Shown: piece by piece, positions 13,045 to 55,469 of the stretch
How positions within the stretch are numbered: the first letter of the stretch is position 1
Layout: every line of letters begins with the position of its first letter
NCBI GenBank assembly: GCA_024274695.1
Contig: JAJSAI010000014.1
Location: forward strand, 1 to 57,875
DNA length: 57,875 nucleotides
Direction: 5' to 3'
Source of the DNA: an archaeon
Lineage (GTDB): Archaea > B1Sed10-29 > JAJSAI01
The notes under the pieces: model-generated
Database searches by the model: none
The model's input: only the letters and a program-made list of their open reading frames with translations
Told to the model about the DNA's origin: nothing
Made by a program: the position numbers and the translations under genes

Positions 13045-13229
13045 TGGCGGGCCCGAGGGGATTCGAACCCCTGACCACCAGGTCTCTCCACAGCCCCTTG
13101 TCTGGGATGTGTAAAAGGGAAGACGCCTTGTTTTGTTTTTGGATGTTAAGGGAAAGGGGTAATAGGGGAAAACCGTAGGTTGTCCCCATTCCGAAGCCTG
13201 GCGCTCTATCCAAGCTGAGCTACGGGCCC
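13045..13229 (-). tRNA. tRNA-Arg (anticodon UCG) with an intron of about 107 nt at the canonical 37/38 position; CCA encoded
   Basis: Exon 1 (13229..13191) reads GGGCCCGTAGCTCAGCTTGGATAGAGCGCCAGGCTTCGG. Exon 2 (13083..13045) reads ACCTGGTGGTCAGGGGTTCGAATCCCCTCGGGCCCGCCA. Joined, they give a perfect cloverleaf: 7-bp acceptor stem, CCAGG/CCTGG anticodon stem, loop CTTCGGA. The intron spans 13190..13084. Confidence 0.75.
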
Positions 13230-27797: not shown

Positions 27798-28766
27798 TCA
27801 TGTGGAAGATTTTACCAGAGAGCCGCTCTCGTCACAATAGTACGTGGACGTGGTTTTGCCCAGTTCAGTGTCAAGAGCGGTTAGCGTTACCTTGTCCTTC
27901 CAGCCTGTTATCTTGAACTCCTCTCCTCCATGCTTTTTGAAGAAGGCTTCCATCTCATACCATACTATATCATGGTGCTCGGGTTTAGGCACGTACACTC
28001 CGCTCTCGTCTGTGACCCACGTGAAGCCAGCGAACTTTTTTACCGCGTGGGCGGTCACCTTAAGCTCTGACAGGCCATTCGGTCCGCTGGGACAGTGTTT
28101 CCCTTCAAGCCCTCCTCCGAGCTCTTCCCTTATTCCCTCCGCCCATTCGGCCCACGCCCTGACTGGATCCGGAGTGCAGACCGTAATATCGTTCTCTGGT
28201 AGTACGCCTATCTTCTCGTACCCGTCAGGAGTCGGTATCTTCATCCAAACGTCTTTCCTTATGTCGTCGAACTGGCTGGAGTCTAGGGTGATGCACACTC
28301 GTCCGTCAGGGTGTTCCTCCTTGAAGAGGTCCTTTGAAACGCTGTGAATAGCATTGCTTATCTCCGTGTCATCAGGGGTTTCCGGCTCGCTCCCCTTGAA
28401 CACGAACGTCTTCCGCGTGGCGTCCACTGCGTTCACGACCGCTTCTGATGTCATCAGGCTAATCTCTTTTGAAACCCGCGCCTCCAGGGCGCCGAGTATG
28501 TCACTCTTTCCTTCCAGAGGGCTCTCCTCTATCTCCATTACTCGGGCCTTGACCGCGTTCTGTGTTTCCGCCTCCACGTTCGCCTTGACCACCTTGATGT
28601 TAATGTAGTCAGTTGAGGTTATCGAGCTTCCGGCCAGCGCTCTGGACGTCCGGAGGTCATTTTCTGCCATCATGCTGGCCGCGAGAATAGCCAGGATCAC
28701 CATGGTGGTGCCAACCAAAGGGGTGAATAAAGAAAAGCCCCTGTTCCTTTTCCGTGCGAAGGACAT
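27798..28766 (-). CDS. Class-III-signal (type IV pilin-like) secreted protein, 322 aa
   Basis: The N-terminus MSFARKRNRG|FSLFTPLVGTTMVILAILAASMM has a basic leader, a Gly, then a hydrophobic helix. Its ATG overlaps the giant gene's stop (TAATG). Confidence 0.65.
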   Translation of the reverse strand: MSFARKRNRGFSLFTPLVGTTMVILAILAASMMAENDLRTSRALAGSSITSTDYINIKVVKANVEAETQNAVKARVMEIEESPLEGKSDILGALEARVSKEISLMTSEAVVNAVDATRKTFVFKGSEPETPDDTEISNAIHSVSKDLFKEEHPDGRVCITLDSSQFDDIRKDVWMKIPTPDGYEKIGVLPENDITVCTPDPVRAWAEWAEGIREELGGGLEGKHCPSGPNGLSELKVTAHAVKKFAGFTWVTDESGVYVPKPEHHDIVWYEMEAFFKKHGGEEFKITGWKDKVTLTALDTELGKTTSTYYCDESGSLVKSST

Positions 28767-36500: not shown

Positions 36501-36513
36501 AATATTTATATTA
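36501..36513 (-). promoter_or_regulatory. TATA-like AATATAAATATT upstream of the giant gene
   Basis: About 40 nt upstream of the ATG at 36466, with the SD-like GGTGATC 3 nt before the ATG. It overlaps the stop of the archaeosortase-like gene. Confidence 0.35.
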
Positions 36514-37050
36514 CTTTCCTAACCCTTTCCACGCTTTCGCAAGCCCCCGGAACACTCTTCCTCCCAGCACGTACCATGCGTAGTAGTATCCTGCGATCGT
36601 GCCCAGCAAGGTGGCCCTGAAGAACAGGTCGTGAACAAGGTCCGCTGTTCCTAGCCCGTGGGAAAAGGCAGACCATAACACGATCCAGATCCTGACAGGA
36701 TTTACGACCGCCACCAGCAGTAGCCCCAGCAGCACTCCCGCGAGCCTGTTCCTCCTGCTCCTGTCAGGGGTCGCGAGCACCGCGGCGACCACTACCGCGA
36801 TCTCCACGTTACCCGCGCACAAGTCGTTCACTTCTGCTCTCAGCCCGCCAGCGGTCACCACGGGATCTTCTCCTGAGAGGACGCACGAGCTAGGCACTCC
36901 GACACTGTTGAGTAGGCTGCTGGCAGCGCACGCTGAGAAGGCTTTTAAAGGGTAAAGGCCTGTTATTCCCAGAAACGCCCACACGGCTGCCGCGATGGCA
37001 AGCACTCTCGCCGTGAAAACGGCAGCGTCCCGGAGCTCTCGCGATCGCAT
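36511..37050 (-). CDS. Minimal exosortase/archaeosortase-family protein (ArtE-like size, 179 aa)
   Basis: About 5 TM helices. Family-type motifs: DLC(78)AGN, then VVN(117)PVR(120)IWIV 42 residues later, then DLVH(140)DLFF. C-to-R spacing and context match the conserved Cys/Arg core of the family. Confidence 0.65.
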   Translation of the reverse strand: MRSRELRDAAVFTARVLAIAAAVWAFLGITGLYPLKAFSACAASSLLNSVGVPSSCVLSGEDPVVTAGGLRAEVNDLCAGNVEIAVVVAAVLATPDRSRRNRLAGVLLGLLLVAVVNPVRIWIVLWSAFSHGLGTADLVHDLFFRATLLGTIAGYYYAWYVLGGRVFRGLAKAWKGLGK

Positions 37051-39363: not shown

Positions 39364-41413
39364 GAAAAAAGAGAGGATAGTCTCGCCAAAACAGTACGCT
39401 GAAGCCTACGGGAGCCTGCTCCAGGGGGGACAGGAGAAAAGGACTACTGGAATCAAAGAACCCCTGTACGTGCGGTTCGCCAGATTCGCTGGAAGGATTA
39501 TCAGAGCACCTAACAAGTTCCAGAAAATAGAGTACCAGGCGGCCCTGGACTTCTTGGGGTGGGACCTGGAGCCAAGGGACGTGAACGCTGCAGGCTCTCT
39601 AGCCCTCGTCCTGTCCCTGCTGGCAGTAGTCCCCGCGGCAGGCATTCTCTTGTACATGACCTTCGTAACCTACGAGCTTTCGTACACAATGCTCTTCTAC
39701 ACGCTCGGTCCGCTGGTGCTCGTCCCGTTCCTGGTCAGCTTCTACGTTCAGAACTACATTCTCTTCGCGGCCAAGAAGGAAAGGATGCTGGCAACATCCA
39801 GCATTTCCGACGTGGTCAACTACCTCACCATGAGCATGAAGCTCTCTCCCAACCTGGAGAGGGCGATATCCTTCGCGGCAGAGCACGCCACGGGAAAGAT
39901 CGCAGAAGAGCTCAAACAGCTTGACTGGGAGATCAGGACAGGAGTGCACGCGAGCGCTGAAGAGGCTCTGGACAAGCTCGCGTACAAGTGGGGAGCGTAC
40001 TCCGACGAGTTCAAGCACGCGCTAATGCTGATCAGGTCAAGCACGATAGAAGTGGACGAGGCCAAGAGGAGCCTGATCCTGGACAAGGCTGTCTCGGACA
40101 CCCTGGAAGGAATAAAAGAGAACATGAACGCGTACGCAGGAGAAATGAGGCAGCCCAGCATATACTTGTACTACATGGGAGTCCTTCTTCCCCTCCTGCT
40201 CATAATCCTTCTTCCGATAGGGAGCATAATGGCCAGGCTCCCGTTCTCTAGAACCCCTTTCATAATACTCTTCTACAACATCCTTGTCCCACTCGCCGTC
40301 TTCGTGTTCGCAAGGAACATAATAGGCAAAAGGCCTCCTGTCTACACTGCTCCCGAGATCCCGGACGACTTTCCCGGCCTACCTAAAAAGGGCAGGATAA
40401 GAATAGGGAAGTCAGAGGTTCCGGCAGTGCTCCTGGGGCTGGTGGCAGCCCTCGCGATCATAGGACTGTTCTCGCTCTTCCTGGACCCCGTGCTCAACCC
40501 GTACCCTCCTGAGTGGAACGTTCAAGCGCGGGAGAACTGGTACCCCCTGTTCAGCCTGACGGGGGTGTTCCTGGGAGGGGCTGTGTTCTCAAGCATTGTC
40601 CTGTACTCCCTCTCGCACGCCAAGCGTAAAGCCCAGAAGGAAATAATGGGCATGGAGAACGAGTTCCAGGACTCTGTCTACCTGCTCGCGAGCAGGCTGG
40701 GGGAGAACAGGCCCGTGGAAGAAGCGGTGGAGTATACCGCCAGTTTTCTGGGAGACACTCCCCTGGGCAGGTTCTACCAGAGGACCGCGGACAACATACG
40801 CAACTTGGGAATGACCCTGGACGCCGCGTTCTTTGACCCAGTCTACGGTTCGCTGAAAACCGTTCCGAGCAGGCTCATCCGAGGAGCTGTCAGGGTCATG
40901 GTTGACGCCATGAGCCTCGGAGTACAGCAGGCTGCAAGGGCCCTCATCTCCTTGTCCCTGCAGATCAGGGACTCCCAGAAGGTCAGGGAAAGGATAGTAG
41001 GGATACTGAAGGAAATCACGGGCATGATGCGGTCAATAGTCCTGTTCATAGGCCCCATAGTTCTGGGAATAACCACCTCCCTGCAGGGGATCGTGGTCAG
41101 CACGCTCAAGAGAGTGAGCGAGACAGGGCTCGCGGGAGGAACAGCTTCAATTCCGGGAGTCAACCTGCCCATGGTCTCCTTCGGCAGCCCAGAAGCCCTC
41201 GCGGGAACTCCTGGCCCGATGCTTTTCATGATAATAATGGCTGTTTTCATGGTAGAACTAACAGTCCTGCTGGTGTACTTCATAACAAGGGTGGAGGAAG
41301 GGGAGAACAATACAGTGCTCTACCACGAGCTCGCCAAGACCCTGCCGATAGCCCTCGCCCTGTTCTTCCTTTCGGCCTGGTTCTCCCAGTCTCTCACAGG
41401 GGCAGTGATCTGA
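39341..41413 (+). CDS. Polytopic pilus platform protein (FlaJ/TadC/GspF-like, two T2SSF-type helical domains)
   Basis: 690 aa. Two cytoplasmic helical domains (LERAISFAAEHATGKIAEELKQLDWEIRTG... and VEEAVEYTASFLGDTPLGRFYQRTADNIRNLG...) are separated by TM clusters. 23-nt overlap with the ATPase gene. Confidence 0.8.
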   Translation: MPRKRRHKKKERIVSPKQYAEAYGSLLQGGQEKRTTGIKEPLYVRFARFAGRIIRAPNKFQKIEYQAALDFLGWDLEPRDVNAAGSLALVLSLLAVVPAAGILLYMTFVTYELSYTMLFYTLGPLVLVPFLVSFYVQNYILFAAKKERMLATSSISDVVNYLTMSMKLSPNLERAISFAAEHATGKIAEELKQLDWEIRTGVHASAEEALDKLAYKWGAYSDEFKHALMLIRSSTIEVDEAKRSLILDKAVSDTLEGIKENMNAYAGEMRQPSIYLYYMGVLLPLLLIILLPIGSIMARLPFSRTPFIILFYNILVPLAVFVFARNIIGKRPPVYTAPEIPDDFPGLPKKGRIRIGKSEVPAVLLGLVAALAIIGLFSLFLDPVLNPYPPEWNVQARENWYPLFSLTGVFLGGAVFSSIVLYSLSHAKRKAQKEIMGMENEFQDSVYLLASRLGENRPVEEAVEYTASFLGDTPLGRFYQRTADNIRNLGMTLDAAFFDPVYGSLKTVPSRLIRGAVRVMVDAMSLGVQQAARALISLSLQIRDSQKVRERIVGILKEITGMMRSIVLFIGPIVLGITTSLQGIVVSTLKRVSETGLAGGTASIPGVNLPMVSFGSPEALAGTPGPMLFMIIMAVFMVELTVLLVYFITRVEEGENNTVLYHELAKTLPIALALFFLSAWFSQSLTGAVI

Positions 41414-41414
41414 C

Positions 41415-41813
41415 ATGCTGGGCAGGGGGCAAGAGTTCGCGGTAATGAAGCTCGTGCTCGCGGTAGCGTTCGCCGCGGCACTCCTGGTCATAGTCACATT
41501 GTATGCTGGAAGCATACAGCCCTCTCCCAGCGCGGCAGAAGACATCCAGGGCCTCCTGTCACAGGCCATGAGCGCGAGAGGCCAGTGCTTCCACAGGACG
41601 GTCACGTACCTTCCCAGCGAAAGGTATCCCTCCAGCGCTTTCACTCCCAGCACGGTGGAGTTCAAGATCAGCGCCAGGTACTCCCAAATTTTTACTGGAG
41701 GGAATGCTCTGGAAGTGAAAGATTACAGGGTGACCGTGGAAACAAGCGCGTCATGCGACACGGCAGGCCAGTGCACTGTCTGCGTGGGAGAGCCCGACTG
41801 CTCCTGCCCGTAA
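41415..41813 (+). CDS. Pilin-like protein (class III signal, Gln at +1)
   Basis: MLGRG|QEFAVMKLVLAVAFAAALLVIVTLY. The start lies 1 nt after the platform gene's stop. Confidence 0.7.
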   Translation: MLGRGQEFAVMKLVLAVAFAAALLVIVTLYAGSIQPSPSAAEDIQGLLSQAMSARGQCFHRTVTYLPSERYPSSAFTPSTVEFKISARYSQIFTGGNALEVKDYRVTVETSASCDTAGQCTVCVGEPDCSCP

Positions 41814-41829
41814 CACCGGGACAGAAACC

Positions 41830-41837
41830 TTTTAAAA
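41830..41837 (+). promoter_or_regulatory. Internal TATA box TTTTAAAA ahead of pilin gene 41869
   Basis: About 35 nt upstream of the start, in the only sizeable gap of the pilin cluster. Confidence 0.35.
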
Positions 41838-41868
41838 CCACACGCGCCTTTCTCTCTTCGGGTGATGC

Positions 41869-42291
41869 GTGATGAGGAAAGGACAGGCTTTCAGCACATT
41901 CCAGCTCATGATCGCGGCCGTGGTCGCGATAGCCATTCTCGGAATACTCCTCGCCATAATAGGAGGGATCTCCCCCCAGGTCTCCAGCCCCAAGCACGCG
42001 ATAGAAAACGCGCTCAGGGAAGCGTACTCTTCCCCTAAGATAGTGAAGTCATCCCCTCAGAAGGTCAGGTTCACTGAGGGGGATAGGTATCCTGGGACCG
42101 CGTTCTCAGAAGTGGTGGGAGGGTCCACTGTACTGTTCAAGTGCGGGAGTATAACAGGTTGTAGTGTGGAAGACAATGGTGAGACCCTTGCAGTCACATC
42201 CACCTTCGACGCCAAGATCTTCGCCACGTGTGATGGTGGAGAGTGCTGTGTTGGGGTCGGAACAGCAATAACGAGCGTGAGCGACTGCTAG
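41869..42291 (+). CDS. Pilin-like protein (class III signal, Gln at +1)
   Basis: MMRKG|QAFSTFQLMIAAVVAIAILGILLAII, 140 aa, with its own TATA-like box. Confidence 0.75.
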   Translation: MMRKGQAFSTFQLMIAAVVAIAILGILLAIIGGISPQVSSPKHAIENALREAYSSPKIVKSSPQKVRFTEGDRYPGTAFSEVVGGSTVLFKCGSITGCSVEDNGETLAVTSTFDAKIFATCDGGECCVGVGTAITSVSDC

Positions 42292-42323
42292 GTCAGCGAG
42301 GCCAGCTCGTGAGATGATCTCGG

Positions 42324-42467
42324 ATGCGCAGGGGGCAGAACTGGACTCCGATTTACCTGGTGATAATAATAGCCATAGCAGTCATCCTGCTGTTCACTAT
42401 AGTAAAGCCGATGTTCACGCAGGCGGGACAGTACGTGCAGTCCACCCTGCCCTCCGTCTTGTTCTGA
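42324..42467 (+). CDS. Mini-pilin, 47 aa (not in the supplied ORF track)
   Basis: Hand translation: MRRG|QNWTPIYLVIIIAIAVILLFTIVKPMFTQAGQYVQSTLPSVLF, stop TGA at 42465-42467. It has the same basic-G-Q plus hydrophobic helix signature as its neighbours. Confidence 0.55.
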   Translation: MRRGQNWTPIYLVIIIAIAVILLFTIVKPMFTQAGQYVQSTLPSVLF

Positions 42468-42481
42468 TCCTCTGAAAAACC

Positions 42482-42490
42482 CTTTTATAC
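42482..42490 (+). promoter_or_regulatory. TATA box CTTTTATAC about 26 nt upstream of pilin ATG 42512 (leaderless)
   Basis: The spacing is the same as at other leaderless genes in this window. Confidence 0.4.
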
Positions 42491-42511
42491 TCTCCCGGCT
42501 TTTTTCTTAGC

Positions 42512-43126
42512 ATGAGCAGGAAGGGCCAGGAGGCCGCGCCAATAGAACTCATGATAGGCGTTACCGTGCTCGCGTTCGTGCTCGTGATCGCGTACTACGT
42601 TTACTCTAACGCCGCGGCCTCTCAGTGCGTGGAAAAAATAAGGGCAAGCTCTGCCCAGCTCGCGAGAACAATAGAGGAGGTGGCCCAACAGGGCCCGGGG
42701 ACAACCAGGTACGTTACAGTCGGGTTCTCGTGCCAGAGTCAGAACGTTAAGGTTTCATACATAACGATAGCGGAAGGGCCTGACCAGACGTGCCAGAGAA
42801 TGGCCGGCGCGAGCAGGTGCTACATGCTCTACGTTATAGGAGACGAGTCAGGCCAGCTTACCGTCATACACTCGGAGCTGTTGAGGAACGTTGGAGAAAG
42901 CGTGGGGATAAAGTACAAGGTAGGGGGCGAGGAGACAAAAATGAAGTGCGATTACAACAGCTTGGTCGCCTACCTGAAGGACGGTAGCGGGTGCGACGCC
43001 GGCGCCTTCATCAAGGCAGGAGAGTACTCGTTCAGGATAACCAAACAAAAGGGAGGACCGGGGGACGAGAAAGAATACTACGTGGTCATAGAAAACCTTC
43101 TCGCTCCTGAGGAGGGAACCTCATGA
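42512..43126 (+). CDS. Pilin-like protein (class III signal, Gln at +1), 204 aa
   Basis: MSRKG|QEAAPIELMIGVTVLAFVLVIAYYVY, with a Cys-containing globular domain. Confidence 0.75.
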   Translation: MSRKGQEAAPIELMIGVTVLAFVLVIAYYVYSNAAASQCVEKIRASSAQLARTIEEVAQQGPGTTRYVTVGFSCQSQNVKVSYITIAEGPDQTCQRMAGASRCYMLYVIGDESGQLTVIHSELLRNVGESVGIKYKVGGEETKMKCDYNSLVAYLKDGSGCDAGAFIKAGEYSFRITKQKGGPGDEKEYYVVIENLLAPEEGTS

Positions 43127-43662
43127 GCCGCGGGCTGGCAATGTGGACCATGTCAAAAATAGTCATGCTGATATTCCTGTTCACGGTCATGGGGTCAATG
43201 CTGTACTACCAGGAGTGGATGAGGCAGACGAGCAGGATAAACCAGGCGCAGTCCGTGGCCATGGAAATAAGAGAAGGGTTCAACAGGATACTGCTCCCGG
43301 AGTCACTGGAATCCAGGGCAGCGGTTCCCATACCGTACAGGATAGCGGGACAAGAGTACTACTTTATGATAAGCACGGCTACCACGAGCTCGGGCCAGAA
43401 GATATTGTATATTGTCCTGGCCTACGGGTCTCATGATAATGGTTTCTTCGGCCCCTGGGATGCTGCGGCATCGCTCATAGTATCCCCTGAGACAGAATTC
43501 TCTAACGGCGAGACAGGAAAGTCCTTGGAAGACTCTCCTGTGCAGGGCAGTTCTTTAACCTACAGGTTCATAATGATTGACAAGGTAATAGACCCTGCTG
43601 GGCACGCTGCTGTCACGGTGCAAGCGTGCGAGAGACTGGACGTTAACGGTGAATGCGCTTGA
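43123..43662 (+). CDS. Pilus-associated N-terminally anchored protein (atypical class III-like signal)
   Basis: MSRG|LAMWTMSKIVMLIFLFTVMGSMLYY. ATGA overlap with the preceding pilin gene. Confidence 0.6.
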   Translation: MSRGLAMWTMSKIVMLIFLFTVMGSMLYYQEWMRQTSRINQAQSVAMEIREGFNRILLPESLESRAAVPIPYRIAGQEYYFMISTATTSSGQKILYIVLAYGSHDNGFFGPWDAAASLIVSPETEFSNGETGKSLEDSPVQGSSLTYRFIMIDKVIDPAGHAAVTVQACERLDVNGECA

Positions 43663-44081
43663 TCGGGAAGGGGTTCATCGGTCCGGTGGGAGACGACATC
43701 CCAACGATCTTGATTATTGTAATGGCTATCACTCTTTTCTTCGCGGGATTTGGCTACGCTCTTCAACTGTACTCTGAAAAGAACGAGAGGCTCATGATGC
43801 TCAAGGCCTCGCTTGACATAAGCAGGGCTCTCCTGAGGTCTACGGTACTGCCAGAGAACCCCATGGATCCCAAGTACTCCGGGCACAAGCAGGCGAGCCT
43901 GCTGGCGCAGTCGTACGGGGTGAAGTTCAGCGCGGTTTACAAGGAGGAAAACTTTGACCCTGCTGCCGACTGCCACGTCCCGCCAGGCCGGGACGTGACC
44001 GTGATGTCCTTCCTGACCGCCAGGAAGGATGCTGACGGGAACATAGTACTGGACACTCTCAGGGTGTGCGTGTGGAAGTGA
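43653..44081 (+). CDS. Pilus-associated N-terminally anchored protein
   Basis: MRLIGKG|FIGPVGDDIPTILIIVMAITLFFAGFGYAL. 10-nt overlap with the upstream gene. Confidence 0.6.
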   Translation: MRLIGKGFIGPVGDDIPTILIIVMAITLFFAGFGYALQLYSEKNERLMMLKASLDISRALLRSTVLPENPMDPKYSGHKQASLLAQSYGVKFSAVYKEENFDPAADCHVPPGRDVTVMSFLTARKDADGNIVLDTLRVCVWK

Positions 44082-44088
44082 TCACAGG

Positions 44089-44598
44089 ATGAGGAAGGGC
44101 CAGTCCGGAGTGATGGACGCCATGATGTTCATGATAATCACTTCAGGAGCGGTCGGCATGCTCCTGTTCGTTTCAGGACTGTACGCTGAGAGCACTAACC
44201 AGCAGGTCCTCTCCTCGTACTCCTACGAGTACGCTGGCAATGCGCTCGTGGCCCTGCACTACGCGCGGGATGATAAGGGAGACTGGTTCTGGAGAAAGCT
44301 TGCGGAGAAATACGACTCAGAGCATCCTGACGAGCTTGAAGAGTATCTTGAGGGAGACGCTGGGAATGTTGTGGAAAAAGTCAGGCTGTCTTCCCCTTCT
44401 CCGCAGACGTACCTGTGCGTGCTTGACAGTTCTGTCAATCCCCTGAAGGCAATGTGCTACAGCATGACCCCTGATGATGTCGGAGTGCTTCAGACAGACT
44501 ACGATAACCCTAACCCCTGCGGTCCCGGCATGCAGTCCTATTCTTACGCTGTTCCCCTGGACGGGGTCAAGTCAGTCTCAGTAATACTATGCTACTAG
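44089..44598 (+). CDS. Pilin-like protein (class III signal, Gln at +1), 169 aa
   Basis: MRKG|QSGVMDAMMFMIITSGAVGMLLFVSGLY. Last gene of the plus-strand operon. Its 3' end overlaps the convergent giant gene by 4 nt. Confidence 0.75.
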   Translation: MRKGQSGVMDAMMFMIITSGAVGMLLFVSGLYAESTNQQVLSSYSYEYAGNALVALHYARDDKGDWFWRKLAEKYDSEHPDELEEYLEGDAGNVVEKVRLSSPSPQTYLCVLDSSVNPLKAMCYSMTPDDVGVLQTDYDNPNPCGPGMQSYSYAVPLDGVKSVSVILCY

Positions 44599-47500
44599 TC
44601 CTCTCTTCTTCTCGCGTACTCCCTGGCCATGGCAAGAGAGACTACTATCAGTGCCACGAACACGAGTCCAGCCGTTCCAGGCGGGATGCTCGGCAGGGCT
44701 AGGAACGGCTGCTCTTGCCTGGTCCCCCTCTTCTCAGGAGGCTTGGCGCTTGGCGCTCCCCACGGCGGCTTGCCCGGCTTCATGAACGCGGCCCCGTTGG
44801 CTCCCTGGCTCACGAACTGCGGGTTGAGCGGGAAGTAAAAGTCGTTCGTCAGACTCACTTTCCCGTCCTGGAAAGAGTAGCCTCCGTTAGGCCCGTTCAA
44901 GAGCATGAGCGGCAGCTTGTTTATTGGGTTGCCGTTAGCGTCGGTGATCACCAGCTGCGGGTTGCCCTGCGGGTCAGTGGTCATGACCGCATAGCCCTGG
45001 TTCCCGTTAGGCAGGACTATCTGGTATCCTGGCATGTCATTGTACGGGGTCTGGTTAACCCATCCCTGGACAGGATACTGGTCCGTGACAAGGTTCCCCT
45101 GGTCATCGTAGTACGAGTACGTGATGTTGGACTGTCCAGTATTAGGATCTGTCACGATCCCGAACATGTTGTTGTCGTCCCCGATGCCGTCCGTGATGCA
45201 CATCGTCTCGGCCTTGTCTTTCCACTGCCGTGCTTCTGGACTGTCCGGGCTCTTGAACTCCCACACGAACTTGAACCCTGGAGTGCCGTCAGGGAGCGTG
45301 CAGTTCTCTATCCTGGGAGCTCCTGCGAACGGCCCGTATTCACTGTCAAGACTGTGCTGCATTCCAGCCAGGTATCCTGTCAGGAACATGTGGTAGACTC
45401 CCGTGAAGTCGTATGCCTCGTCTCCCATTTCCTGTTTTACTCCCGGTCTTATGAATCCTCTGGTGTACACTATCGCTCCGTCGGATCCTAAGGCGAACCT
45501 GCAGAACTCGTCGCCCTTGCTGTCCTTTAGTATTATCGTTCCCTGCTTGTCGTTCTTGAACTCCAGGACGCCGTCCGGAACCGTTGCCACTCCTAAGAAC
45601 CTTGCCTTGCACTCTTTCGGAGGAGCTCCCTTGATGAACCTGAACTTGATCTCGTTCTCGGCAGTGGGCCAGATTATCGCGCGCTCGGTCTGCACGTAGT
45701 CCATGGCCCCCATGGCGTCCCGCAGTTGTTCCTTTACATAACCGTCGTCCTTCACGTTCTTGAGGGCGAGCATGTCGTCAGACATGAGCTTTTCTTTCAG
45801 GCAGTTCCCGTCCGGCGTGTCAGTCGTCTCTATTCCGTCAGGATACAGTTTGAGGATGGTGTCCGCCTGGTCCGCCTTCTTTATTTCTATTACTTTTGAG
45901 GCCATGTAAGCGTACCCGTTGTCCATGTCTATACCAAGGGACAGGAACAGCGGGTTCGGCTCTTCTAGTATTGGGTTGCCTTTCTCGTCAAGCAGGAAGT
46001 AGCCTCCTGCCATCATGCACTTGTACGCTCCGGTCCGCGGGTCCTGGTGGCAGAAGGATATCGGGCAGTCTGGGTCTAAAAGCCACCTGACGTTGGCCCT
46101 CTGGAAGTACGCGTCGTACACCCTGTCCGCGATCAGGTGCATTTCTCCTGGCGCTGTCACCACGTAATCGTGGAGCACCTGGGTCTGGACCTGGTTCGGG
46201 TCGGCCCAGCTCCTGATAATCTGGCCTGCTTCAGGGGACACTCCCTCCAGCCAGTTCACTACCGTGGAAATGGTCTGGCCCGCTTCTTTGGGCAGGTCCT
46301 TGAAGTCCTCTGCTATATCCTCTCCTTCCAGGACCCGCGCCAGGCTCGCTATCTCCACGTCTGTTTCCAGGCAGGTGCTCATGTCCTTTAACGCCTTCTC
46401 CTGGGCTTCTATGGCCTTCATTTCAATGTACGCGTTGGTAAGGTCCGCGACGAGGTCTATCCCCACTCCTACAGCAAAGCCAGCTGGTCCTGCCGCCGCG
46501 AACAGTTCTGGGAGGATGTTGGTGAACGTGGCAACACCCAAGGAGGCTGCCGCCGCCCACTTCCAGTACGTGATGTCCCCTTTCCTGTCGCCGAGCACCT
46601 TGGAGCACATCTGGTTCTCGTGCGAGAACGCGTACTTGACGTTCACCAGCGTTCCCTGCCTCATGTCCTGGCCTGTGAGCGTGGCGACCTGCATGAGCCT
46701 TCTTGCGGTGAAAGAGTATACTAACAGTTTTATGAAAAGCTCTCTCTGCGTGAAGCTGGGCACAGGGATGATGGCCGCGGGTATTGCCGCGTAGAATCCT
46801 CCTTCCAGCACCGCTTTTGAGAAAAGGTAAGTTGTTCCCGCGAAGGTCCCGAACGCGCTTTGGACCAGGTCAGGGGCTAAGGGCTTGTCCACCGCGCTCG
46901 CTATGTCCGCGTTCTTGGTGTACCAGTATATTCCCGTGTACATCCCGTCTTTCAGGTTGGTCCAGCCTGCCGGGTCCTCGTATATCGTGTAACCTGTCAC
47001 GTCATTATAGTCTGAGAAGAAGTAGAACTTTCCTGCCAGGGAAAGGATCATGTTCTTGTTGTTCACTTCAAGCTTCTGGTGGGGGTTGACCTGGTCAACT
47101 ATGTAAACGTGCTTCCCAAGACTCTTTCCCTTGGCAAGGGCCTGTGACGGGAAGTTAGGAGCGTCCGGAGTGTACTTCGTGCTCAGCATTCCCACAAGGC
47201 CTCCGACCAAGGAGAACCCTGCTTGTCTTGCCACGTTCTGGTTGATCCAGGTGGTGTGTATCTCTGTTTCCGCGTATACTGGAGCGCTGATGTTCTCCCT
47301 CAACTCCCTGCTCAGACTGATCTTTGTCACCTGTGATGGGAAGTACGGCTGTTGGAAGTACTCGTTGTACCTGCTCACGGCAATGTAAGAGAGGGTCATC
47401 CCAACATGGCTTAATCTTGTGAAAACTGTGAGGAATGAGATCACGCGCCCCCCGACCGCTGCGAAGATTACTTTTGCGGCGTCCCATTTCGGAACTCCCT

Positions 47501-49400
47501 TCAGGCTCCTGTACACGAGAAGGGGTCCTGCGGTCCCCGCAAGGTATCCTTCTGCGTTCTCAAGTCTTCTCATCTCGTCTTTGGCGTCCTGCAGGTTCTC
47601 TAGTTTTGACCCGTACTTGGCGTTGAAGGATTCCAGAGCGCTCTTGAATCCCTTTTTGGCCTTGCTGAGCTCGTTCATGTTCTCAGAATACGTTTTCAGC
47701 AGGGCCCTAACATCGCTCGGAGCATCTATCTCGTCCAGGTTCTTGACTATGACGTCCACTCCTGTGATTTTTCCTGAATCGTCCGTTATTATCCTGATAA
47801 TCTTTCTGTTCTCTAGTTCTTTAAGTTCGTCCAGGTGGCCTTCCAGGCTTTCCAGAGTCTTCTTAACGGCTCCTTCTTTTTTGGTAACCTCCTTTCCCGC
47901 GTCAAGCACTTTCTCCAGGGCCTCTTTTTTCTTTGAAACGTATCCTCCGATGGGGAAGGACCCTCTTCTGATCCCTCCGAGCACTGCTGATGTTATCCTG
48001 TCCCTGAGCGTGAGCGTGCCTAGATCATCTATGTTTATTGCTATCTTCTGCCCTTCAACTTCTTTTACTATCTGAAGCACACCGTTGTCTCCCTGGAGTA
48101 TCTTGTACCCGTCCCCGAGGTCAGTGTCCGCGGCGGCCTCAAACACTTTCCCTGTGCCCCTGTCGAGCACGTACGTTTTTCCCCCCTTGCTTACGCGCAC
48201 GAACCTTTCTTCAGCAGGCAGTCTCCGCGCGCCTTCCTGGAGGCTGTCCGCGATGTCTATCTGTGCCTCCAGCACTGCCTTGATGTTCTTGTTCCTGCCT
48301 GAAACCTCCCGGTACCAGTCTTTAAGATCATACCACCATCCGAGGGCCTTGCCTTTTATTCCCTTGCGCGCGGTTTTTTCACTGAGTTCTAGAGCCTCCT
48401 CGGCAGCATCGTCTCCTATTCCGGACGAGGGGTTGGCGAGCATTTCTGTTACCGCCGCAATAGAGTACACGGTGTCAAACTCGTTCCAGGCTGTGGCAAG
48501 CCAGCCTATGAACTGCATCAGGTGAACCGGCACGAGTATGTCCAGCTTGTCAGGCCCGAGAAGGTTTATTTCAATGTTGTTGCTCCTGATCCTGTTCGGG
48601 GGCTTGGACGCGTCCTCAAGGTCCCTTCCAACTACAGATGACACCTTGTTGGTCAGTTCCCTCACCACGAGCCTTTTCTCGTCCTCGCTTAGCACGGTCA
48701 CGTCCTTTTCCACATCATCAAGATCATACTCTTTTGAGACCTTGAGTATTGCGGACCTGACCCATGACCTCACCTTCTCGTCAGAATTGACAGCATCCCG
48801 GAACGCTTGCGTGTTATTGTTGTAAAGCGCGTTAACAAGGGACGTTATGATCGGCGCTCTCTCGGCAGTGTCAATAGTCCCGCTGAAGTCAATCCCTTTC
48901 CCGCAGTCCTCGTCCACGGTACAGTATATTGTTTCGTCTGTCCTGAGCGCGTACGAGACAAGCCCGTCAACTATAACGTTCTTCAGCTGGCACGCTTCCG
49001 CAGGGCTTTCCACCTGTTTTTTCTGCACGTTGTACAGCAGGAGCTTGCCTCTCTCGGTCATGATGAACTTGTCCTTCACTCTCTCTGCCCCGGGAACGTC
49101 AGAGAGGCCCTGTTCCTCCATTCTCTCCTGCTGCATTCCCAGGACAGGGTTCCCGAAAGCGTCCAGTTGGGGGAAGCTCGTGCGTATCTTTGTTTTCAGC
49201 CGCTGGTACTCTGAATAGTTTAGCTTGTCAATCCATACGTTTTCGCAGCCTCCCAGCCGGGCTCCTTCCTTAACGTCATTGTTCCTCCAGTCCCACACGG
49301 TGGCCATTTCAGAATCCTGGCAGCACTGGGTCAGAGGATAGAACGAGGGCATTATGAGCGTTACCGCGAGTAAAAACGTCAGGAGACCGCGTTTGTTCAT
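44595..49400 (-). CDS. Giant (1601 aa) secreted protein with an N-terminal signal peptide and a sortase-type C-terminal tripartite signal
   Basis: N-terminus MNKRGLLTFLLAVTLIMPSF. C-terminus ...LPSIPPGTAGLVFVALIVVSLAMAREYARRRED (motif, TM helix, Arg-rich tail). It has a central coiled coil, Gly/Ala-rich hydrophobic segments, and an N/G/Q/P-rich region before the tail. Confidence 0.85.
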   Translation of the reverse strand: MNKRGLLTFLLAVTLIMPSFYPLTQCCQDSEMATVWDWRNNDVKEGARLGGCENVWIDKLNYSEYQRLKTKIRTSFPQLDAFGNPVLGMQQERMEEQGLSDVPGAERVKDKFIMTERGKLLLYNVQKKQVESPAEACQLKNVIVDGLVSYALRTDETIYCTVDEDCGKGIDFSGTIDTAERAPIITSLVNALYNNNTQAFRDAVNSDEKVRSWVRSAILKVSKEYDLDDVEKDVTVLSEDEKRLVVRELTNKVSSVVGRDLEDASKPPNRIRSNNIEINLLGPDKLDILVPVHLMQFIGWLATAWNEFDTVYSIAAVTEMLANPSSGIGDDAAEEALELSEKTARKGIKGKALGWWYDLKDWYREVSGRNKNIKAVLEAQIDIADSLQEGARRLPAEERFVRVSKGGKTYVLDRGTGKVFEAAADTDLGDGYKILQGDNGVLQIVKEVEGQKIAINIDDLGTLTLRDRITSAVLGGIRRGSFPIGGYVSKKKEALEKVLDAGKEVTKKEGAVKKTLESLEGHLDELKELENRKIIRIITDDSGKITGVDVIVKNLDEIDAPSDVRALLKTYSENMNELSKAKKGFKSALESFNAKYGSKLENLQDAKDEMRRLENAEGYLAGTAGPLLVYRSLKGVPKWDAAKVIFAAVGGRVISFLTVFTRLSHVGMTLSYIAVSRYNEYFQQPYFPSQVTKISLSRELRENISAPVYAETEIHTTWINQNVARQAGFSLVGGLVGMLSTKYTPDAPNFPSQALAKGKSLGKHVYIVDQVNPHQKLEVNNKNMILSLAGKFYFFSDYNDVTGYTIYEDPAGWTNLKDGMYTGIYWYTKNADIASAVDKPLAPDLVQSAFGTFAGTTYLFSKAVLEGGFYAAIPAAIIPVPSFTQRELFIKLLVYSFTARRLMQVATLTGQDMRQGTLVNVKYAFSHENQMCSKVLGDRKGDITYWKWAAAASLGVATFTNILPELFAAAGPAGFAVGVGIDLVADLTNAYIEMKAIEAQEKALKDMSTCLETDVEIASLARVLEGEDIAEDFKDLPKEAGQTISTVVNWLEGVSPEAGQIIRSWADPNQVQTQVLHDYVVTAPGEMHLIADRVYDAYFQRANVRWLLDPDCPISFCHQDPRTGAYKCMMAGGYFLLDEKGNPILEEPNPLFLSLGIDMDNGYAYMASKVIEIKKADQADTILKLYPDGIETTDTPDGNCLKEKLMSDDMLALKNVKDDGYVKEQLRDAMGAMDYVQTERAIIWPTAENEIKFRFIKGAPPKECKARFLGVATVPDGVLEFKNDKQGTIILKDSKGDEFCRFALGSDGAIVYTRGFIRPGVKQEMGDEAYDFTGVYHMFLTGYLAGMQHSLDSEYGPFAGAPRIENCTLPDGTPGFKFVWEFKSPDSPEARQWKDKAETMCITDGIGDDNNMFGIVTDPNTGQSNITYSYYDDQGNLVTDQYPVQGWVNQTPYNDMPGYQIVLPNGNQGYAVMTTDPQGNPQLVITDANGNPINKLPLMLLNGPNGGYSFQDGKVSLTNDFYFPLNPQFVSQGANGAAFMKPGKPPWGAPSAKPPEKRGTRQEQPFLALPSIPPGTAGLVFVALIVVSLAMAREYARRRED

Positions 49401-50230
49401 TTTCTCCTCCTCCTTGATCTTGCTACAGCAAGGCCTATTATCACGGCCGCCGCGATTCCCACCACCACCGCGGCGGTGGTCTCAGGGTTTTCTGCCACGG
49501 CCGTTTCTACGGGGCCCTTCTCCTCTTTTTCCAGTTTGTAGAAGGACGCTGCTATCGCGAGCCCCTTCTTGTCCATTTCTCCGTCAAAGTAAATCTTCTC
49601 GCCTATTAGATCGTAGTAAACCGCGTACCCTTCTTCAGGACTGCCTTCAACCTGGAACCCTGAAAAATTGCCGAACTCTTTCGGGTCTATGAGAAGGAAT
49701 ACTGGGGTGCCCTTCTTTAGGGTGACGGGGACCTTTTCCAGGCTAACGTTCTTAGGATAGGCTACCACGAACCTTCTCACGCTGATGTTCGTGTCCTCGT
49801 CAAGGACTCCTGTGGCCATGCACACGTCAACAGCGTCCCCGCACGCCGTGCACTCCGCCTCGCACTTGGACAGCTTCTCGTAGTCGTCAAGGTAGTCCAG
49901 GCACCGGTAGACTGTTCTCGCGCACCCCGGGTCGCAGGTCGTGTTGGAGTAGCACACGATCCCGTTCGTTATGACCACTGGAACTTCTGTTACAGTGGCC
50001 GAGAGCCAGCAGACCTTCCTCCCGAGCTCGTCGGTGTCACAGTCCTTCGTGGCCTCCTCGAAGGCCGCGGGGTTGGTCCACCTCCCGTACTGGTCCACGG
50101 TCCAGTTTTCTCCTATCATAGACTCGGGAATACAGATCTTGCCGGCACTGCTTTCCCTGCACACCTGTGAGAGACCCTGTGCTAGCAGGATCAGGACAAG
50201 CACCAGCCAAAGCTTCCTTGACATTCTCAT
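49397..50230 (-). CDS. Cys-rich secreted protein (277 aa) with a sortase-type C-terminal signal
   Basis: Start at MRMSRKLWLVLVLILLAQG (ATGA overlap with the upstream stop). 16 Cys in the mature part. C-terminus ...ENPETTAAVVVGIAAAVIIGLAVARSRRRRK. ATGA overlap with the 1601-aa gene. Confidence 0.75.
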   Translation of the reverse strand: MRMSRKLWLVLVLILLAQGLSQVCRESSAGKICIPESMIGENWTVDQYGRWTNPAAFEEATKDCDTDELGRKVCWLSATVTEVPVVITNGIVCYSNTTCDPGCARTVYRCLDYLDDYEKLSKCEAECTACGDAVDVCMATGVLDEDTNISVRRFVVAYPKNVSLEKVPVTLKKGTPVFLLIDPKEFGNFSGFQVEGSPEEGYAVYYDLIGEKIYFDGEMDKKGLAIAASFYKLEKEEKGPVETAVAENPETTAAVVVGIAAAVIIGLAVARSRRRRK

Positions 50231-50718
50231 ACCCCCAGGTGCACTGCCAGCCAGAGCGCGCATGCTCCTGCCAGTAGTACTATAGTGTTGAACGTGATTA
50301 ATATTACGAACAGTTCCAGTTCCTCGGGCACTTTCATTATTCTCCGCATCCTCTCTCTAAAACTTTCAGCAGGCTTTTTCAGCACGAGCCCCAGCAGGAA
50401 TCCTGCGAGGACCGTCTGCCCAAGCTTGTCCGCGGCAACCCATCCTCCCTGGGCCGCTGGCACGAGGGCCAGGAATCCTGCGATCATAGCGCACGCTATG
50501 CCCAGGCTAGCAATGTAAGCAGACAGGCCCTCAGAGTTTTTCAGAAGGCTCCTCCTCGCTCTTACTGCCACGACAGAGAATGGCCATGCGACCAGCGTGA
50601 TGATCAGTGAGAGCAGCAGCAGGTCCAGAACATCCCATGCGAAGAAGGCGTTGAGGAGAGCGTAGGAGATCGCGAAAAAAGGGTTCACAGTGAACGTCTG
50701 CCAGAAGAAACTGTCCAT
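50227..50718 (-). CDS. Polytopic membrane protein (about 5 TM), first gene of the convergent operon
   Basis: 163 aa, hydrophobic throughout. No family recognised. Confidence 0.6.
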   Translation of the reverse strand: MDSFFWQTFTVNPFFAISYALLNAFFAWDVLDLLLLSLIITLVAWPFSVVAVRARRSLLKNSEGLSAYIASLGIACAMIAGFLALVPAAQGGWVAADKLGQTVLAGFLLGLVLKKPAESFRERMRRIMKVPEELELFVILITFNTIVLLAGACALWLAVHLGV

Positions 50719-50766
50719 ACGAGAACCAAAAGGTTTTTAGTGTTTAAAAAAGTATCGTGTTACCGG

Positions 50767-51348
50767 ATGGCAGAAGACGAGATAGACGAGGAAGTGATGG
50801 AGCTCATACGAAAGGCCAGGCAGAGGAGAAAAGGGATACTGCCAGAGCCAGAACCAGAGCAGCCTGAGCCTGAAAAGAAGGAAGAACAGGAAGAGCCTGC
50901 CCGCACGGCAGGCTACCGCAGGAGATACCTTGAGAGACTGAAGCGCAGGCAAAAAAGAGAAGGGGCTAGGGAAACGGCTCCCGAGTACTCTCCTCCCTCG
51001 GTTCCTGAAACCGGCCAGACAGAAGAAAAGACTTCCGTTCCTTCAGAGGAGCTGGTATACTCTCCTCCTGTCCTGCCCGCAGAGATAGAGGAAGAGCTGA
51101 AGCTCCCGGAAAAAGAAGAAACGCTTGACTTGATGAAACAATTAGAGGAACTGGAGGTTCCTGAAAAGAAGGCGTGCGCCACGTGCGGGGCTATCAACAG
51201 CAAGAAGTACTACTGCCCGTACTGCGGGAAACAGTTCTGCACGTCATGCGGAAAGGTTCTCGAAAAAACGGAGGGCAGGACCGTTTACGAGTGTCCTAAC
51301 TGCCACAAGAGGGTCGTGATAGAGGAAGAGCGGGAAAATCAGGAGTGA
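50767..51348 (+). CDS. Zinc-ribbon protein with an acidic Pro/Glu-rich N-terminal half
   Basis: C-terminal CATCG...CPYCGKQFCTSCG...CPNCH contains four CxxC pairs. ATG at 50767 lies about 20 nt after GTTTAAAAAAGT (50741-50752). The ORF-track start at 50740 is a GTG inside that TATA-like box. Confidence 0.65.
   Translation: MAEDEIDEEVMELIRKARQRRKGILPEPEPEQPEPEKKEEQEEPARTAGYRRRYLERLKRRQKREGARETAPEYSPPSVPETGQTEEKTSVPSEELVYSPPVLPAEIEEELKLPEKEETLDLMKQLEELEVPEKKACATCGAINSKKYYCPYCGKQFCTSCGKVLEKTEGRTVYECPNCHKRVVIEEERENQE
50842..50874 (+). repeat. Imperfect CCNGAR hexamer repeat encoding PEPEPEQPEPE
   Basis: ccagagccagaaccagagcagcctgagcctgaa, a low-complexity coding repeat. Confidence 0.5.
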
Positions 51349-51352
51349 CTGC

Positions 51353-51892
51353 TCACAGCTCTTTTGTCACGTAGGGGAACGCGAACAGGTTCTCGCTCAC
51401 GTGCAAGGGGGGTCTTACGATGTCCGCTCTCAGTCTCCCCTCCTCGTCCACTGCTTCTGGCTTGTAATGGAGCCTGACCACCCTCCCGATTATTAGCACG
51501 TGGTCTCCCTCTTTCTTTGCGCTCTCCAGGTAGCATTCCATGCTCGCCGCGCATTCCGCGAGAAGGGGTGGGGCTACTTTCTCGGCGGGCGCGGTCTGGA
51601 GCCCTGCCTTCTCTATCTTGGACACGTCAGGATCATGCTTTCCGCCCGCTATCCACACCTTTTCAAGCATCTTTTCTGTTGGGATGTTGACCACGAACTC
51701 CTTTTTCCGGGTGATGTTCCAGTAGGAGTGCTTGTTAGGGCCTACCGCGAGCATGAGCAGGGGAGGGTCAAAAGAAACAGGGGCCACGAAAGAGAACGCT
51801 GCCACGTCAGCCCTTCCCTTCTCGTCCACGGTGGTCACGAGGACCACTGGCCTGGGCGCCAGCAGCTTGTAATAGTTCTTAGGGTCGGTCAA
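51353..51892 (-). CDS. Flavin reductase-like (FMN-binding split-barrel) protein
   Basis: LLAPRPVVLVTTVDEKGRADVAAFSFVAPVSFDPPLLMLAVGPNKHSYWNI matches the flavin reductase domain pattern. Confidence 0.8.
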   Translation of the reverse strand: MTDPKNYYKLLAPRPVVLVTTVDEKGRADVAAFSFVAPVSFDPPLLMLAVGPNKHSYWNITRKKEFVVNIPTEKMLEKVWIAGGKHDPDVSKIEKAGLQTAPAEKVAPPLLAECAASMECYLESAKKEGDHVLIIGRVVRLHYKPEAVDEEGRLRADIVRPPLHVSENLFAFPYVTKEL

Positions 51893-53904: not shown

Positions 53905-54684
53905 TCATGCTATGCTGGACCCGAGCGAGAGCGCGTACACCGCGCTCGCGGCGGGAACAATCACGGAAGCGTAAAATACTATCCTGTCCCTCTTGTTCTC
54001 CGCGAGGGCAAGGAAAACAGACACTATAAGGCCCATGAGGGGCACGTAGTACTGGTTGGCGGTCAGGACAGCATCCTGCAGCCCACTGTCGTCAGGCCCG
54101 GTTCCCAGCACGCCGGTCCCGGGAAGGTCAAGGGACCTGACCACAGAGAAAGAGGTTCCCAAGAGCCACGGGATCAACAGCCCTGCCGAGATAACCAGGG
54201 TATACTTTTCCACGAGCAGTGACGCGTTCCCCTCTTTTTCAAGCGCTCTCTTGTTCATTCCCTCTTCGGCCAGTGTCCTCATGGCCCTCGCGACCCCCTC
54301 TCCCTTCCGGTAGCACGCGAGCAGCAGCCACACTTCCTCCCGGAGCAGGGGGTTCTCCTCAGCCATTTCCTCAAGCGCCTTTTCCACAGGAGCTCCCCTG
54401 CTTATCTCCCTGCACGCTCTCATAAGGCGGGCGTGGAACGGAGAGTCCCCTCTGGCCGCTTCCCTTAACGCTTTCTCAAAGGGAAGAAATCCCACCAGGA
54501 CCGAAAAGTGGTACATCACTTCAGGCGCGCTCTCCTTCTCCCTGCGCTTCCTCTTTTCCCTGCTGTACTCGGGGAACATCACCGCCTCTGCCACGGGGAT
54601 AGTGATCATAGGAGCGTAAACAGGCCCTGCCAGGACAGTTCCTGCGATCCACGCGCACGCGACCAGCACGACTCCGGAGATCAT
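53905..54684 (-). CDS. TadC/GspF-domain membrane protein (second secretion locus)
   Basis: Start at MISGVVLVACAW, immediately after the upstream stop. Helical domain FEKALREAARGDSPFHARLMRACREISRGAPVEKALEEMAEE is flanked by TM helices. Confidence 0.7.
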   Translation of the reverse strand: MISGVVLVACAWIAGTVLAGPVYAPMITIPVAEAVMFPEYSREKRKRREKESAPEVMYHFSVLVGFLPFEKALREAARGDSPFHARLMRACREISRGAPVEKALEEMAEENPLLREEVWLLLACYRKGEGVARAMRTLAEEGMNKRALEKEGNASLLVEKYTLVISAGLLIPWLLGTSFSVVRSLDLPGTGVLGTGPDDSGLQDAVLTANQYYVPLMGLIVSVFLALAENKRDRIVFYASVIVPAASAVYALSLGSSIA

Positions 54685-55469
54685 GCCGCAGGCCTCCTTG
54701 ACAGCAAAAGCAGCATAACCGTGGCGCTCGCGGCAGGAAACCCTGCCAGGATGACTCCAACAGCCTGGACCGGGCCCAGTCCCACGTTCATGAAAGAGGA
54801 GCCTATGGTGACAAATGACTCGAACATGCACGGCAGAACCGCGGAGCACATTATAAAGAAAAGAGAGTACATGACCGCTTTGCTGTTATACTCCCTGATC
54901 CTGTTCCTCTGCTCCACGAGAACGCTCCTCGCGAAAGAGGAAAGGTTCTCTGTTGACCCCGTGTAGTAGGTTCTCTCAAGCTCTGAGCACGCTCTAGAGA
55001 ACGTTGGGCAGGGAGAAAGTATCCTCTCCTTCTCCAGTGCAGAGTGCGCGCTTTCCCCTGCCTCCATCCTGTCAGCTGCCCTGGCAAGCCTTTCCCCAGC
55101 AGGGCCTCCTGCGCCCTTGAGTGCCTTCTCAAACCCTTCTCCCGCCTCCAGGAGCGCGTACACGAGCAGGAGCGCCCACGGTACCGAGGAGTAAACCTTT
55201 CTGGCGATAAAACGCCTTTTGCAGAAAGGCCATAATCCCAGCACCATGATCCCCGCCCCGGCAAGACCCCAGACGCCGAAGAACAGGCAGGAAGAAAAGG
55301 AGGTCCACGCGGACAAGAACACCAGGCCCGCGAGCAGTCCAGAATACTCTTCAACGGTCCACCCTGCCTGGACGAGGGGCAGGCGCGCTCTGTCCAGCAC
55401 GCCGAGTAAAGGCCGTCCTGCGGGCTCAAACCCTCTTGCCAAGCACAAGAGCAGTCGCTCTAGAAGCAT
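54681..55469 (-). CDS. TadB/GspF-domain membrane protein (second secretion locus)
   Basis: GFEKALKGAGGPAGERLARAADRMEAGESAHSALEKE is flanked by TM helices. The start is uncertain: ATG at 55469 or TTG at 55442. The ORF-track start at 55601 overlaps the ATPase by 176 nt. Confidence 0.65.
   Translation of the reverse strand: MLLERLLLCLARGFEPAGRPLLGVLDRARLPLVQAGWTVEEYSGLLAGLVFLSAWTSFSSCLFFGVWGLAGAGIMVLGLWPFCKRRFIARKVYSSVPWALLLVYALLEAGEGFEKALKGAGGPAGERLARAADRMEAGESAHSALEKERILSPCPTFSRACSELERTYYTGSTENLSSFARSVLVEQRNRIREYNSKAVMYSLFFIMCSAVLPCMFESFVTIGSSFMNVGLGPVQAVGVILAGFPAASATVMLLLLSRRPAA

Follow-up and report, generated by a model that had tools for sequence, protein, structure and literature searches.

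The question raised by this locus is whether two adjacent genes for secreted proteins in an archaeon encode a common, new C-terminal sorting signal. The genes, called A and B here, lie on a contig of 57,875 nucleotides (nt; JAJSAI010000014.1), the whole of which was analyzed and is referred to as the window. An earlier note had proposed that both proteins end in a shared motif, P-[GE]-T-x-[AG], followed by a transmembrane (TM) helix and an Arg-rich tail, the organization of the CTERM signals that archaeosortases and exosortases process. We found that this proposal is only half right, because the tail of B is best taken for an ordinary membrane anchor. The real feature is a family-specific module of LPxxP, helix and Arg on one giant protein, A, encoded in a conserved sortase/pilus-like gene cluster of DPANN archaea. 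We favor the tentative reading that the tail of A is a dedicated, unnamed archaeosortase signal and that B carries a plain type-I anchor, and we give this reading a probability of about 0.45.

Translation bore out two adjacent open reading frames (ORFs) with the lengths and tails that had been described. Gene A (44595..49400, minus strand) encodes a giant secreted protein of 1601 amino acids that begins MNKRGLLTFLLAVTLIMPSFYP... and ends ...QPFLALPSIPPGTAGLVFVALIVVSLAMAREYARRRED (the terminal stretch also given as ...FLALPSIPPGTAGLVFVALIVVSLAMAREYARRRED), and in which a signal peptide is followed by a beta-rich ectodomain, then by a disordered linker and finally by a tripartite module at the C-terminus. 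The parts of the module, all on the minus strand, are a juxtamembrane motif, L1567-A-L-P-S-I-P1573 (44682..44702; family consensus LA-[AQ]-LP-x-x-P), a transmembrane helix, A1577-A1592 (44625..44672), and a basic cytoplasmic tail, R1593-EYARRRED (44598..44624), followed by the stop codon (44595-44597). The helix is the highest hydropathy peak of the protein and is also present in a structure model. Gene B (49397..50263, minus strand) encodes 288 amino acids from its first ATG and 277 from the start at 50230; the 277-amino-acid form (49397..50230) is the version in the protein collection. B is a Cys-rich secreted or type-I membrane protein that ends ...AENPETTAAVVVGIAAAVIIGLAVARSRRRRK. Its tail (49400..49486, minus strand) has the same tripartite layout, with PETT, an 18-residue helix and RSRRRRK where A has LPSIP, a 16-residue helix and REYARRRED. 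The Sec-type N-termini ascribed to both proteins were supported by hydropathy, each protein having an N-terminal segment resembling a signal peptide and a single strong segment at the C-terminus. Among the window ORFs of at least 80 amino acids, a hydrophobic tail with a basic end was found only in A, in B and in the last helix of a small polytopic membrane protein. A third gene, C (50227..50718, minus strand), encodes a 163-amino-acid membrane protein with 3-4 helices. Because the stop codon of B overlaps the start of A and the 277-amino-acid start of B abuts the stop of C, the three genes form one tightly coupled operon, of which C is the first.

Proteins related to A are rare. An exhaustive phmmer search of 1.84 billion protein representatives gave 30 matches, each a representative cluster. 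Relatives came from this search and from a genome scan with the FlaI-like ATPase of the cluster, and about 40 of them were used in total to compare the tails. Word-indexed searches with A and with B returned only the window's own proteins, and a genome scan with a narrow C-terminal alignment of A returned 3 loci. The motif was present in 27 tails of the representative set, that of the window included. In these tails, an unalignable linker after a conserved PPWG leads to N-x-L-A-[AQ]-L-P-x-x-P-x-x, then to a helix with a conserved Phe and a pair of small residues, and then to [IV]-R-x-[RK]-[YF]. Throughout the family the helix is about 16-20 residues long, with the pair of small residues about 5 positions ahead of the terminal Arg. 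In alignments of 22 and 25 sequences, L1569, P1570, P1573 and F1581 were invariant and R1593 was nearly so; the mean column identity of these alignments was 23-26%, and of the 17 invariant columns, 4 fall within the last 33 residues of A. L1569, P1570 and P1573 precede the residues of the motif first proposed: the PGT of the window falls on variable positions after the second Pro, and a Glu occurs there in only about a third of the tails.

A distant clade of relatives from Iainarchaeota matched the A profile at about E = 1e-15. Their tails read PP[AV][VIL]P-x-x-[P/G/E], followed by a helix and a short basic end, and again the preceding linker could not be aligned. On a profile of the A tails, the A tails themselves scored 41-62 bits and the Iainarchaeal tails 8-15 bits. 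Conservation of a motif among its carriers while the linker before it varies was found for A only, and not for B. An AlphaFold model of the last 441 amino acids of A (predicted local distance difference test score, pLDDT, 82) is beta-rich, with disorder in the linker (model residues 388-410) and a helix over residues 416-440, and places the motif at the junction of the two. Searches of the PDB found no relative of A by sequence profile and no credible one by fold, and Foldseek with the A model returned only noise (TM-scores of about 0.1). Pfam and NCBIfam gave nothing credible for A, B or C; a MACPF_D3 match on A was discarded, its 17.8 bits falling short of the cut-off of 25.

The tail of B gave a different result. 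Its sole detectable relative, at 11673-12497 of related locus L021, comes from the closest sampled genome to the window and is only 24% identical to B, although the ATPases of the two genomes are 86% identical. In this relative LEQLA is aligned opposite the NPETT of the window, and the tail, ...LLLEQLAPVLIVLAAIVVVLAAFIKHRRRRR, is without Pro-Glu-Thr. Small proteins encoded next to A in L002 (213 amino acids), L028 (258 amino acids) and L004 (199 amino acids) have a helix and a poly-Lys/Arg tail, with no motif in common and no Pro-Glu or Pro-Gly motif. On the A-tail profile the B tail scored 2.2 bits (E = 19). The juxtamembrane stretches of A and B share at most 3 identities per 5-residue window. 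About 5% of trials with random 12-mers of matched composition gave as many, and this figure has to be read with the post hoc definition of P-[GE]-T-x-[AG] in mind. Given the ortholog, the profile score and the near-chance similarity to A, the tail of B is best read as a plain stop-transfer anchor, and its likeness to the PGT of A is probably coincidental. B would then be a fast-evolving, Cys-rich type-I membrane protein that is co-translated with A. Thus, of the view that both tails are CTERM-like, the part concerning A stood, since A has the organization of a sorting signal with a conserved motif; the part concerning B did not, since B lacks the signal of A and the B-like proteins are free of the motif.

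The tails lie outside the named signals, as had been claimed. We compared them with the NCBIfam CTERM models (PGF-, PEF-, PEP-, VPXXXP-, PIP-, VPEID-, Loki-, Heimdall- and MYXO-CTERM, and LPXTG), and the A and B tails of the window were below every cut-off. The A tail scored 15.3 on VPEID-CTERM (cut-off 33), and the B tail 14.2 on LPXTG (cut-off 15.9). Among 8 tails, the sole score above a cut-off was that of L004 on the generic LPXTG anchor model (16.1 against 15.9).

The same cluster encodes a candidate enzyme, a mini archaeosortase-family protein of 179 amino acids and about 5 helices (36511..37050, minus strand). It carries the signature of the family, with 34.9 bits on TIGR04178 (cut-off 23), and falls just short on PF09721 (25.2 bits against 25.7); its relatives have precomputed PF09721 matches and the name 'exosortase/archaeosortase family protein'. 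No named subfamily reached its own cut-off (16-30 bits against 80-170): the best scores were those of XrtM (30.4 against 125) and XrtX (30.0 against 170), followed by archaeosortase D (21.1 against 125) and pacearchaeosortase (16.1 against 80). The catalytic residues are intact. In alignments of 17 and 18 sortase relatives, C78 (LCxGxxE), R120 (NxxRI) and H140 were invariant and R145 (HxxxFR) was at least 90% conserved, and the enzyme looks functional. An AlphaFold model of the protein (pLDDT 92) has about five helices; a PDB sequence profile search found no solved homologue, and Foldseek with the model found no match at E <= 0.001. The family is small, with 18 clusters among 5.8 billion proteins, and any name given in the source is only generic. 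A genome scan with the sortase alone found nothing, and exact-sequence queries with the sortase and with B matched no contig.

We collected related loci by scanning with the FlaI-like ATPase (20 loci), with a flavin-reductase-like gene, with relatives of the sortase and with the C-termini of Iainarchaeal A proteins. A common layout emerged, in which the sortase gene is followed on its own strand by a gene for a prepilin-like protein and one for an N-terminally anchored giant, and the divergent side runs from an ATPase and a TadC-like protein through a set of five or six pilin-like proteins to the 4-TM protein C and to A. In some loci, the window among them, gene A converges on the pilin operon; in others it extends that operon on the same strand. 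The divergent sortase-ATPase pair was present in every sortase locus recovered. In the window, family models identify a FlaI/TadA-like ATPase (37084-39363, plus strand), divergent from the sortase gene, and a TadC/T2SSF-like platform protein (39341-41413, plus strand). Six pilin-like genes (41415..44598, plus strand) follow and converge on the end of A; their products have N-termini resembling class-III signal peptides (RKG|Q... and GKG|F...) and no Pfam or NCBIfam match, and their gene order is conserved across loci. The operon downstream of the sortase gene encodes the prepilin-like protein, of 322 amino acids (27798-28766, minus strand), and the giant, of 2566 amino acids with CarboxypepD_reg-like domains (28766-36466, minus strand). 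Neither carries a C-terminal helix, and both were therefore ruled out as classical sortase substrates.

The sortase gene and A were found together on 12 contigs: the window, CAZVAJ010000006, CAZBZN010000003, JAJRYS010000011, QMVG01000001, CAZXTN010000001, JAGVWA010000002, JAGHAM010000023, WALL01000014, JAGMCR010000011, JBHOSQ010000002 and JAFGGZ010000041. The two genes are at the same time members of one pilus-like cluster. On JAGHAM010000023 (L007/L045) the start of A lies inside the last 26 nt of the sortase gene. In 16 loci, gene C either immediately preceded A or closed the pilin operon. The alignment of C has no invariant polar or catalytic-type residue; C was for this reason rejected as an alternative processing enzyme, and is probably a structural membrane partner of A.

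On the reading that we favor, A would be exported via Sec and first be retained in the membrane by its C-terminal helix. Its module (LA-x-LP-x-x-P, the patterned helix, and Arg with the basic tail) would be the recognition signal of the archaeosortase of the cluster, which would cleave A at the Pro motif or immediately behind it, and the ectodomain would then pass to a lipid or other acceptor. The known case of ArtA and PGF-CTERM is the analogy from which we infer the action of the sortase on A, the cut site and the acceptor. Rather than a genome-wide signal, this looks like a dedicated pairing of one enzyme with one substrate family. So few substrates would not be exceptional, since genomes with ArtA have 1 to 52 predicted ones (PMC6098224).

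The system resembles that of ArtA and PGF-CTERM in having a Sec-exported surface substrate, with a C-terminal motif, helix and basic cluster behind a flexible linker, and a polytopic membrane enzyme from the exosortase/archaeosortase family in which Cys, Arg and His/Arg are conserved. It differs in several respects. The motif of A is LA-x-LP-x-x-P and not PGF, with no match to the PGF-CTERM model, and the enzyme is a 179-amino-acid core of about 5 helices that matches only the generic TIGR04178. The host is a DPANN archaeon, whereas a 2018 review placed archaeosortases in a subset of Euryarchaeota (PMC6098224). The gene for the enzyme lies inside a type-IV-pilus-like cluster, and there is apparently a single substrate family.

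Other known systems share some of these properties. The short exosortases of NCBIfam (XrtX, XrtM, XrtH, archaeosortase D and pacearchaeosortase; model lengths 150-168) are similarly small and keep the catalytic core, and, weak as the matches are, they come closest to the window protein. Exosortases of this size commonly have a single substrate, or a few, in their vicinity. However, the window protein is below the cut-off of every one of these models, and their cognate signals do not match the A tail. VPXXXP-CTERM, the signal of archaeosortase B, and PEP-CTERM have the forms V-P-x-x-x-P and V-P-E-P, respectively. Like the motif of A, they place a hydrophobic residue and Pro, and a second Pro a few residues on, directly before the helix, often with a Glu after the Pro, but the spacing in A is hydrophobic-P-x-x-P-[E]. 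Their models gave no matches except that of PEP-CTERM on a related tail (13.7 bits against a cut-off of 16). Thus, the system encoded by the A cluster seems to work like ArtA/PGF-CTERM or the short exosortases, but to belong to no named signal or enzyme subfamily. The literature that we searched held no description of this cluster, of this signal, or of an archaeosortase gene coupled to a type-IV-pilus-like (FlaI/TadC/pilin) cluster.

Nearly as likely as the reading that we favor is that both tails are permanent type-I anchors, and that the Pro motif, helix and Arg of A form a stalk or docking element inside the pilus-like machine, packing, for example, against C or the TadC-like platform. The sortase would then have another substrate elsewhere in the genome or a role tied to the ATPase or the prepilin-like protein. 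Permanent C-terminal anchors of archaeal surface proteins have the same layout, a signal peptide, a large ectodomain, one C-terminal helix and a positive-inside tail; this layout fully describes B and could describe A. A differs from such anchors in that conservation of its juxtamembrane motif and of the pattern in its helix far exceeds that of the remaining sequence, and in its genetic link to a sortase-family enzyme. The conservation of the A tail could itself reflect a structural or docking role, however, because all carriers of the module are homologues of A. We found no unrelated protein with the signal in the window or in about 0.9 Mb of related loci, some of them overlapping, so that the usual hallmark of a sorting signal is gone. 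Several further observations count against a sorting signal on A. The most constant neighbors of the sortase gene are the genes for the ATPase and the prepilin-like protein, not A, and they are its partners also in loci without A; in a distant sortase clade (L016, L017, L042 and L044) there was neither A nor any protein with a C-terminal tripartite layout within 10 kb. The linkage of A to C is tighter than that of A to the sortase. The position-specific conservation in the helix, a Phe and a small-residue pair, is what is expected for helix-helix packing. Some cytoplasmic tails in the family are long, their lengths ranging from about 3 to 32 residues. In three Iainarchaeal loci the second Pro is replaced (VPLRGEG in L049, VPLHGTG in L050 and VPLHEEG in L052), and one A relative, P0027, has an acidic insert of 35 residues, ESQIEEFEQFEHESELEEESSDTATTTPTGK, between its LPSTPG motif and the helix; both fit a permanent anchor as well. 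L049, L050 and L052 retain the upstream PPAVP and the sortase gene, and an insert like that of P0027 is unusual if the motif must lie at the membrane surface. What speaks for sorting is that an intact archaeosortase kept in reduced, DPANN-type genomes needs a tripartite substrate, and A is the only one in the cluster; no other ORF in the fetched loci has a conserved motif together with a C-terminal helix and a basic end. In addition, sorting signals typically have their motif where an unalignable linker meets the helix, as A does, and the genes for sortase and A overlap in one lineage.

The other explanations seem to us much less probable. It is unlikely that the mini archaeosortase is an integral part of a DPANN type-IV-pilus-like machine, cutting A at LP-x-x-P and joining it covalently to a filament or base component instead of merely to a lipid of the membrane. 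The acceptor in that case could be the prepilin-like protein encoded after the sortase gene, and the structure would be an archaeal, non-homologous counterpart of sortase-built pili, with a large adhesin for attachment to a host. Very improbable is the proposal in its original form, that A and B share P-[GE]-T-x-[AG], helix and Arg-rich tail as one new CTERM signal and are both processed by the mini sortase. The generic tripartite layout of the two tails, their encoding in one operon, and the resemblance of the NPETT of B to the P-E-[NGST] that about a third of the A tails have after the second Pro are in its favor. But B is without the invariant LP-x-x-P, its tail is far below the A tails on their own profile, the two tails are scarcely more alike than expected by chance, the PGT of A falls on positions that vary within its family, and the ortholog and positional equivalents of B have no Pro-Glu or Pro-Gly motif. 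Comparison with the ortholog, in particular, largely refutes this version. The claim that two unrelated proteins share a new signal thus does not hold; since B does not share the signal of A, a signal common to unrelated proteins has no example, the A family being its sole carrier in the related loci of about 0.9 Mb. Least probable of all is that the A tail serves another processing enzyme, such as a rhomboid-type or other intramembrane protease encoded outside the window, and that its link with the archaeosortase is mere membership in one cluster. There are precedents, in that rhombosortase is reported to handle GlyGly-CTERM and myxosortase to handle MYXO-CTERM, and a rhomboid gene lies near the distant sortase locus L042. 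However, the window has no such gene and none is conserved in the cluster, the A tails have no Gly-Gly or Cys signature, and the archaeosortase is the sole conserved candidate enzyme of the cluster.

If the tail of A is indeed an archaeosortase signal, then LPxxP would be a new motif class and the 179-amino-acid protein would represent a new minimal enzyme subfamily. Sortase-type anchoring would extend beyond the Euryarchaeota of the 2018 review (PMC6098224) to DPANN archaea. Sorting chemistry would also be linked to a type-IV-pilus-like apparatus and to a giant surface protein that is rare. With a 179-amino-acid enzyme and a tail of about 40 residues, the pair is compact and should for that reason be easy to assay in a heterologous host. 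Cultivated DPANN archaea depend on contact with host cells, and the parts of the A cluster are therefore plausible attachment machinery.

The window is from a DPANN archaeon related to Micrarchaeota and Iainarchaeota. An intron-containing tRNA, a family-B DNA polymerase and a phosphoenolpyruvate synthase mark it as archaeal, and the nearest public loci are in genomes of Micrarchaeota and Iainarchaeota (DPANN) assembled from metagenomes. The host is likely a tiny archaeon of the symbiotic type. The Rfam tRNA match extends over 182 nt (13048-13229, minus strand), a length that presumably includes an intron; ARAGORN, used in its bacterial mode, gave no tRNA there.

Several other features of these loci recurred. 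A gene for a prepilin-like protein was directly after the sortase gene in every clade (second after it in L041). These proteins range from 271 to 921 amino acids and begin with [KR][KR]G|F[AS]..TP[LM][VM]G; besides the copy in the window, they are encoded at 10508-12589 in L039, 11359-13455 in L041, 4914-7679 in L042 and 3790-6501 in L044. The N-terminus of the 2566-amino-acid giant (36300-36466, minus strand) has a conserved acidic domain of about 45 residues, Y..[VIL]E[DE][KR]W[FY]..LD...K.[IVL]PVY..[VI]DP[IL]E..G[IV]PSLP, which was also present in L001, L003, L004, L005, L038, L039 and L041 and matched no family model. This domain ends in hydrophobic-P-x-x-P directly before the single N-terminal helix, an arrangement of motif and helix like that of A but at the opposite end of the protein and probably on the cytoplasmic side.

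A second secretion-ATPase pair lies at 53905-57105 (minus strand). One member is a FlaI/TadA-like ATPase whose N-terminal region resembles a 4Fe-4S ferredoxin (55426-57105, minus strand), and the other is a T2SSF-like membrane protein (53905-54849, minus strand). The ATPase recurs near the flavin-reductase-like gene (51353-51892 in the window) in many related loci. In one Iainarchaeal lineage (L039, 1-741, and L009/L052), a PIN-domain gene has apparently been inserted between C and A. The gene at 50740-51348 (plus strand) encodes a 202-amino-acid protein that is rich in Glu and Lys in its N-terminal part and carries a double zinc ribbon at the C-terminus. It is conserved beside the flavin-reductase-like gene and near A in several loci, and some of its relatives are longer, with a hydrophobic segment at the start.

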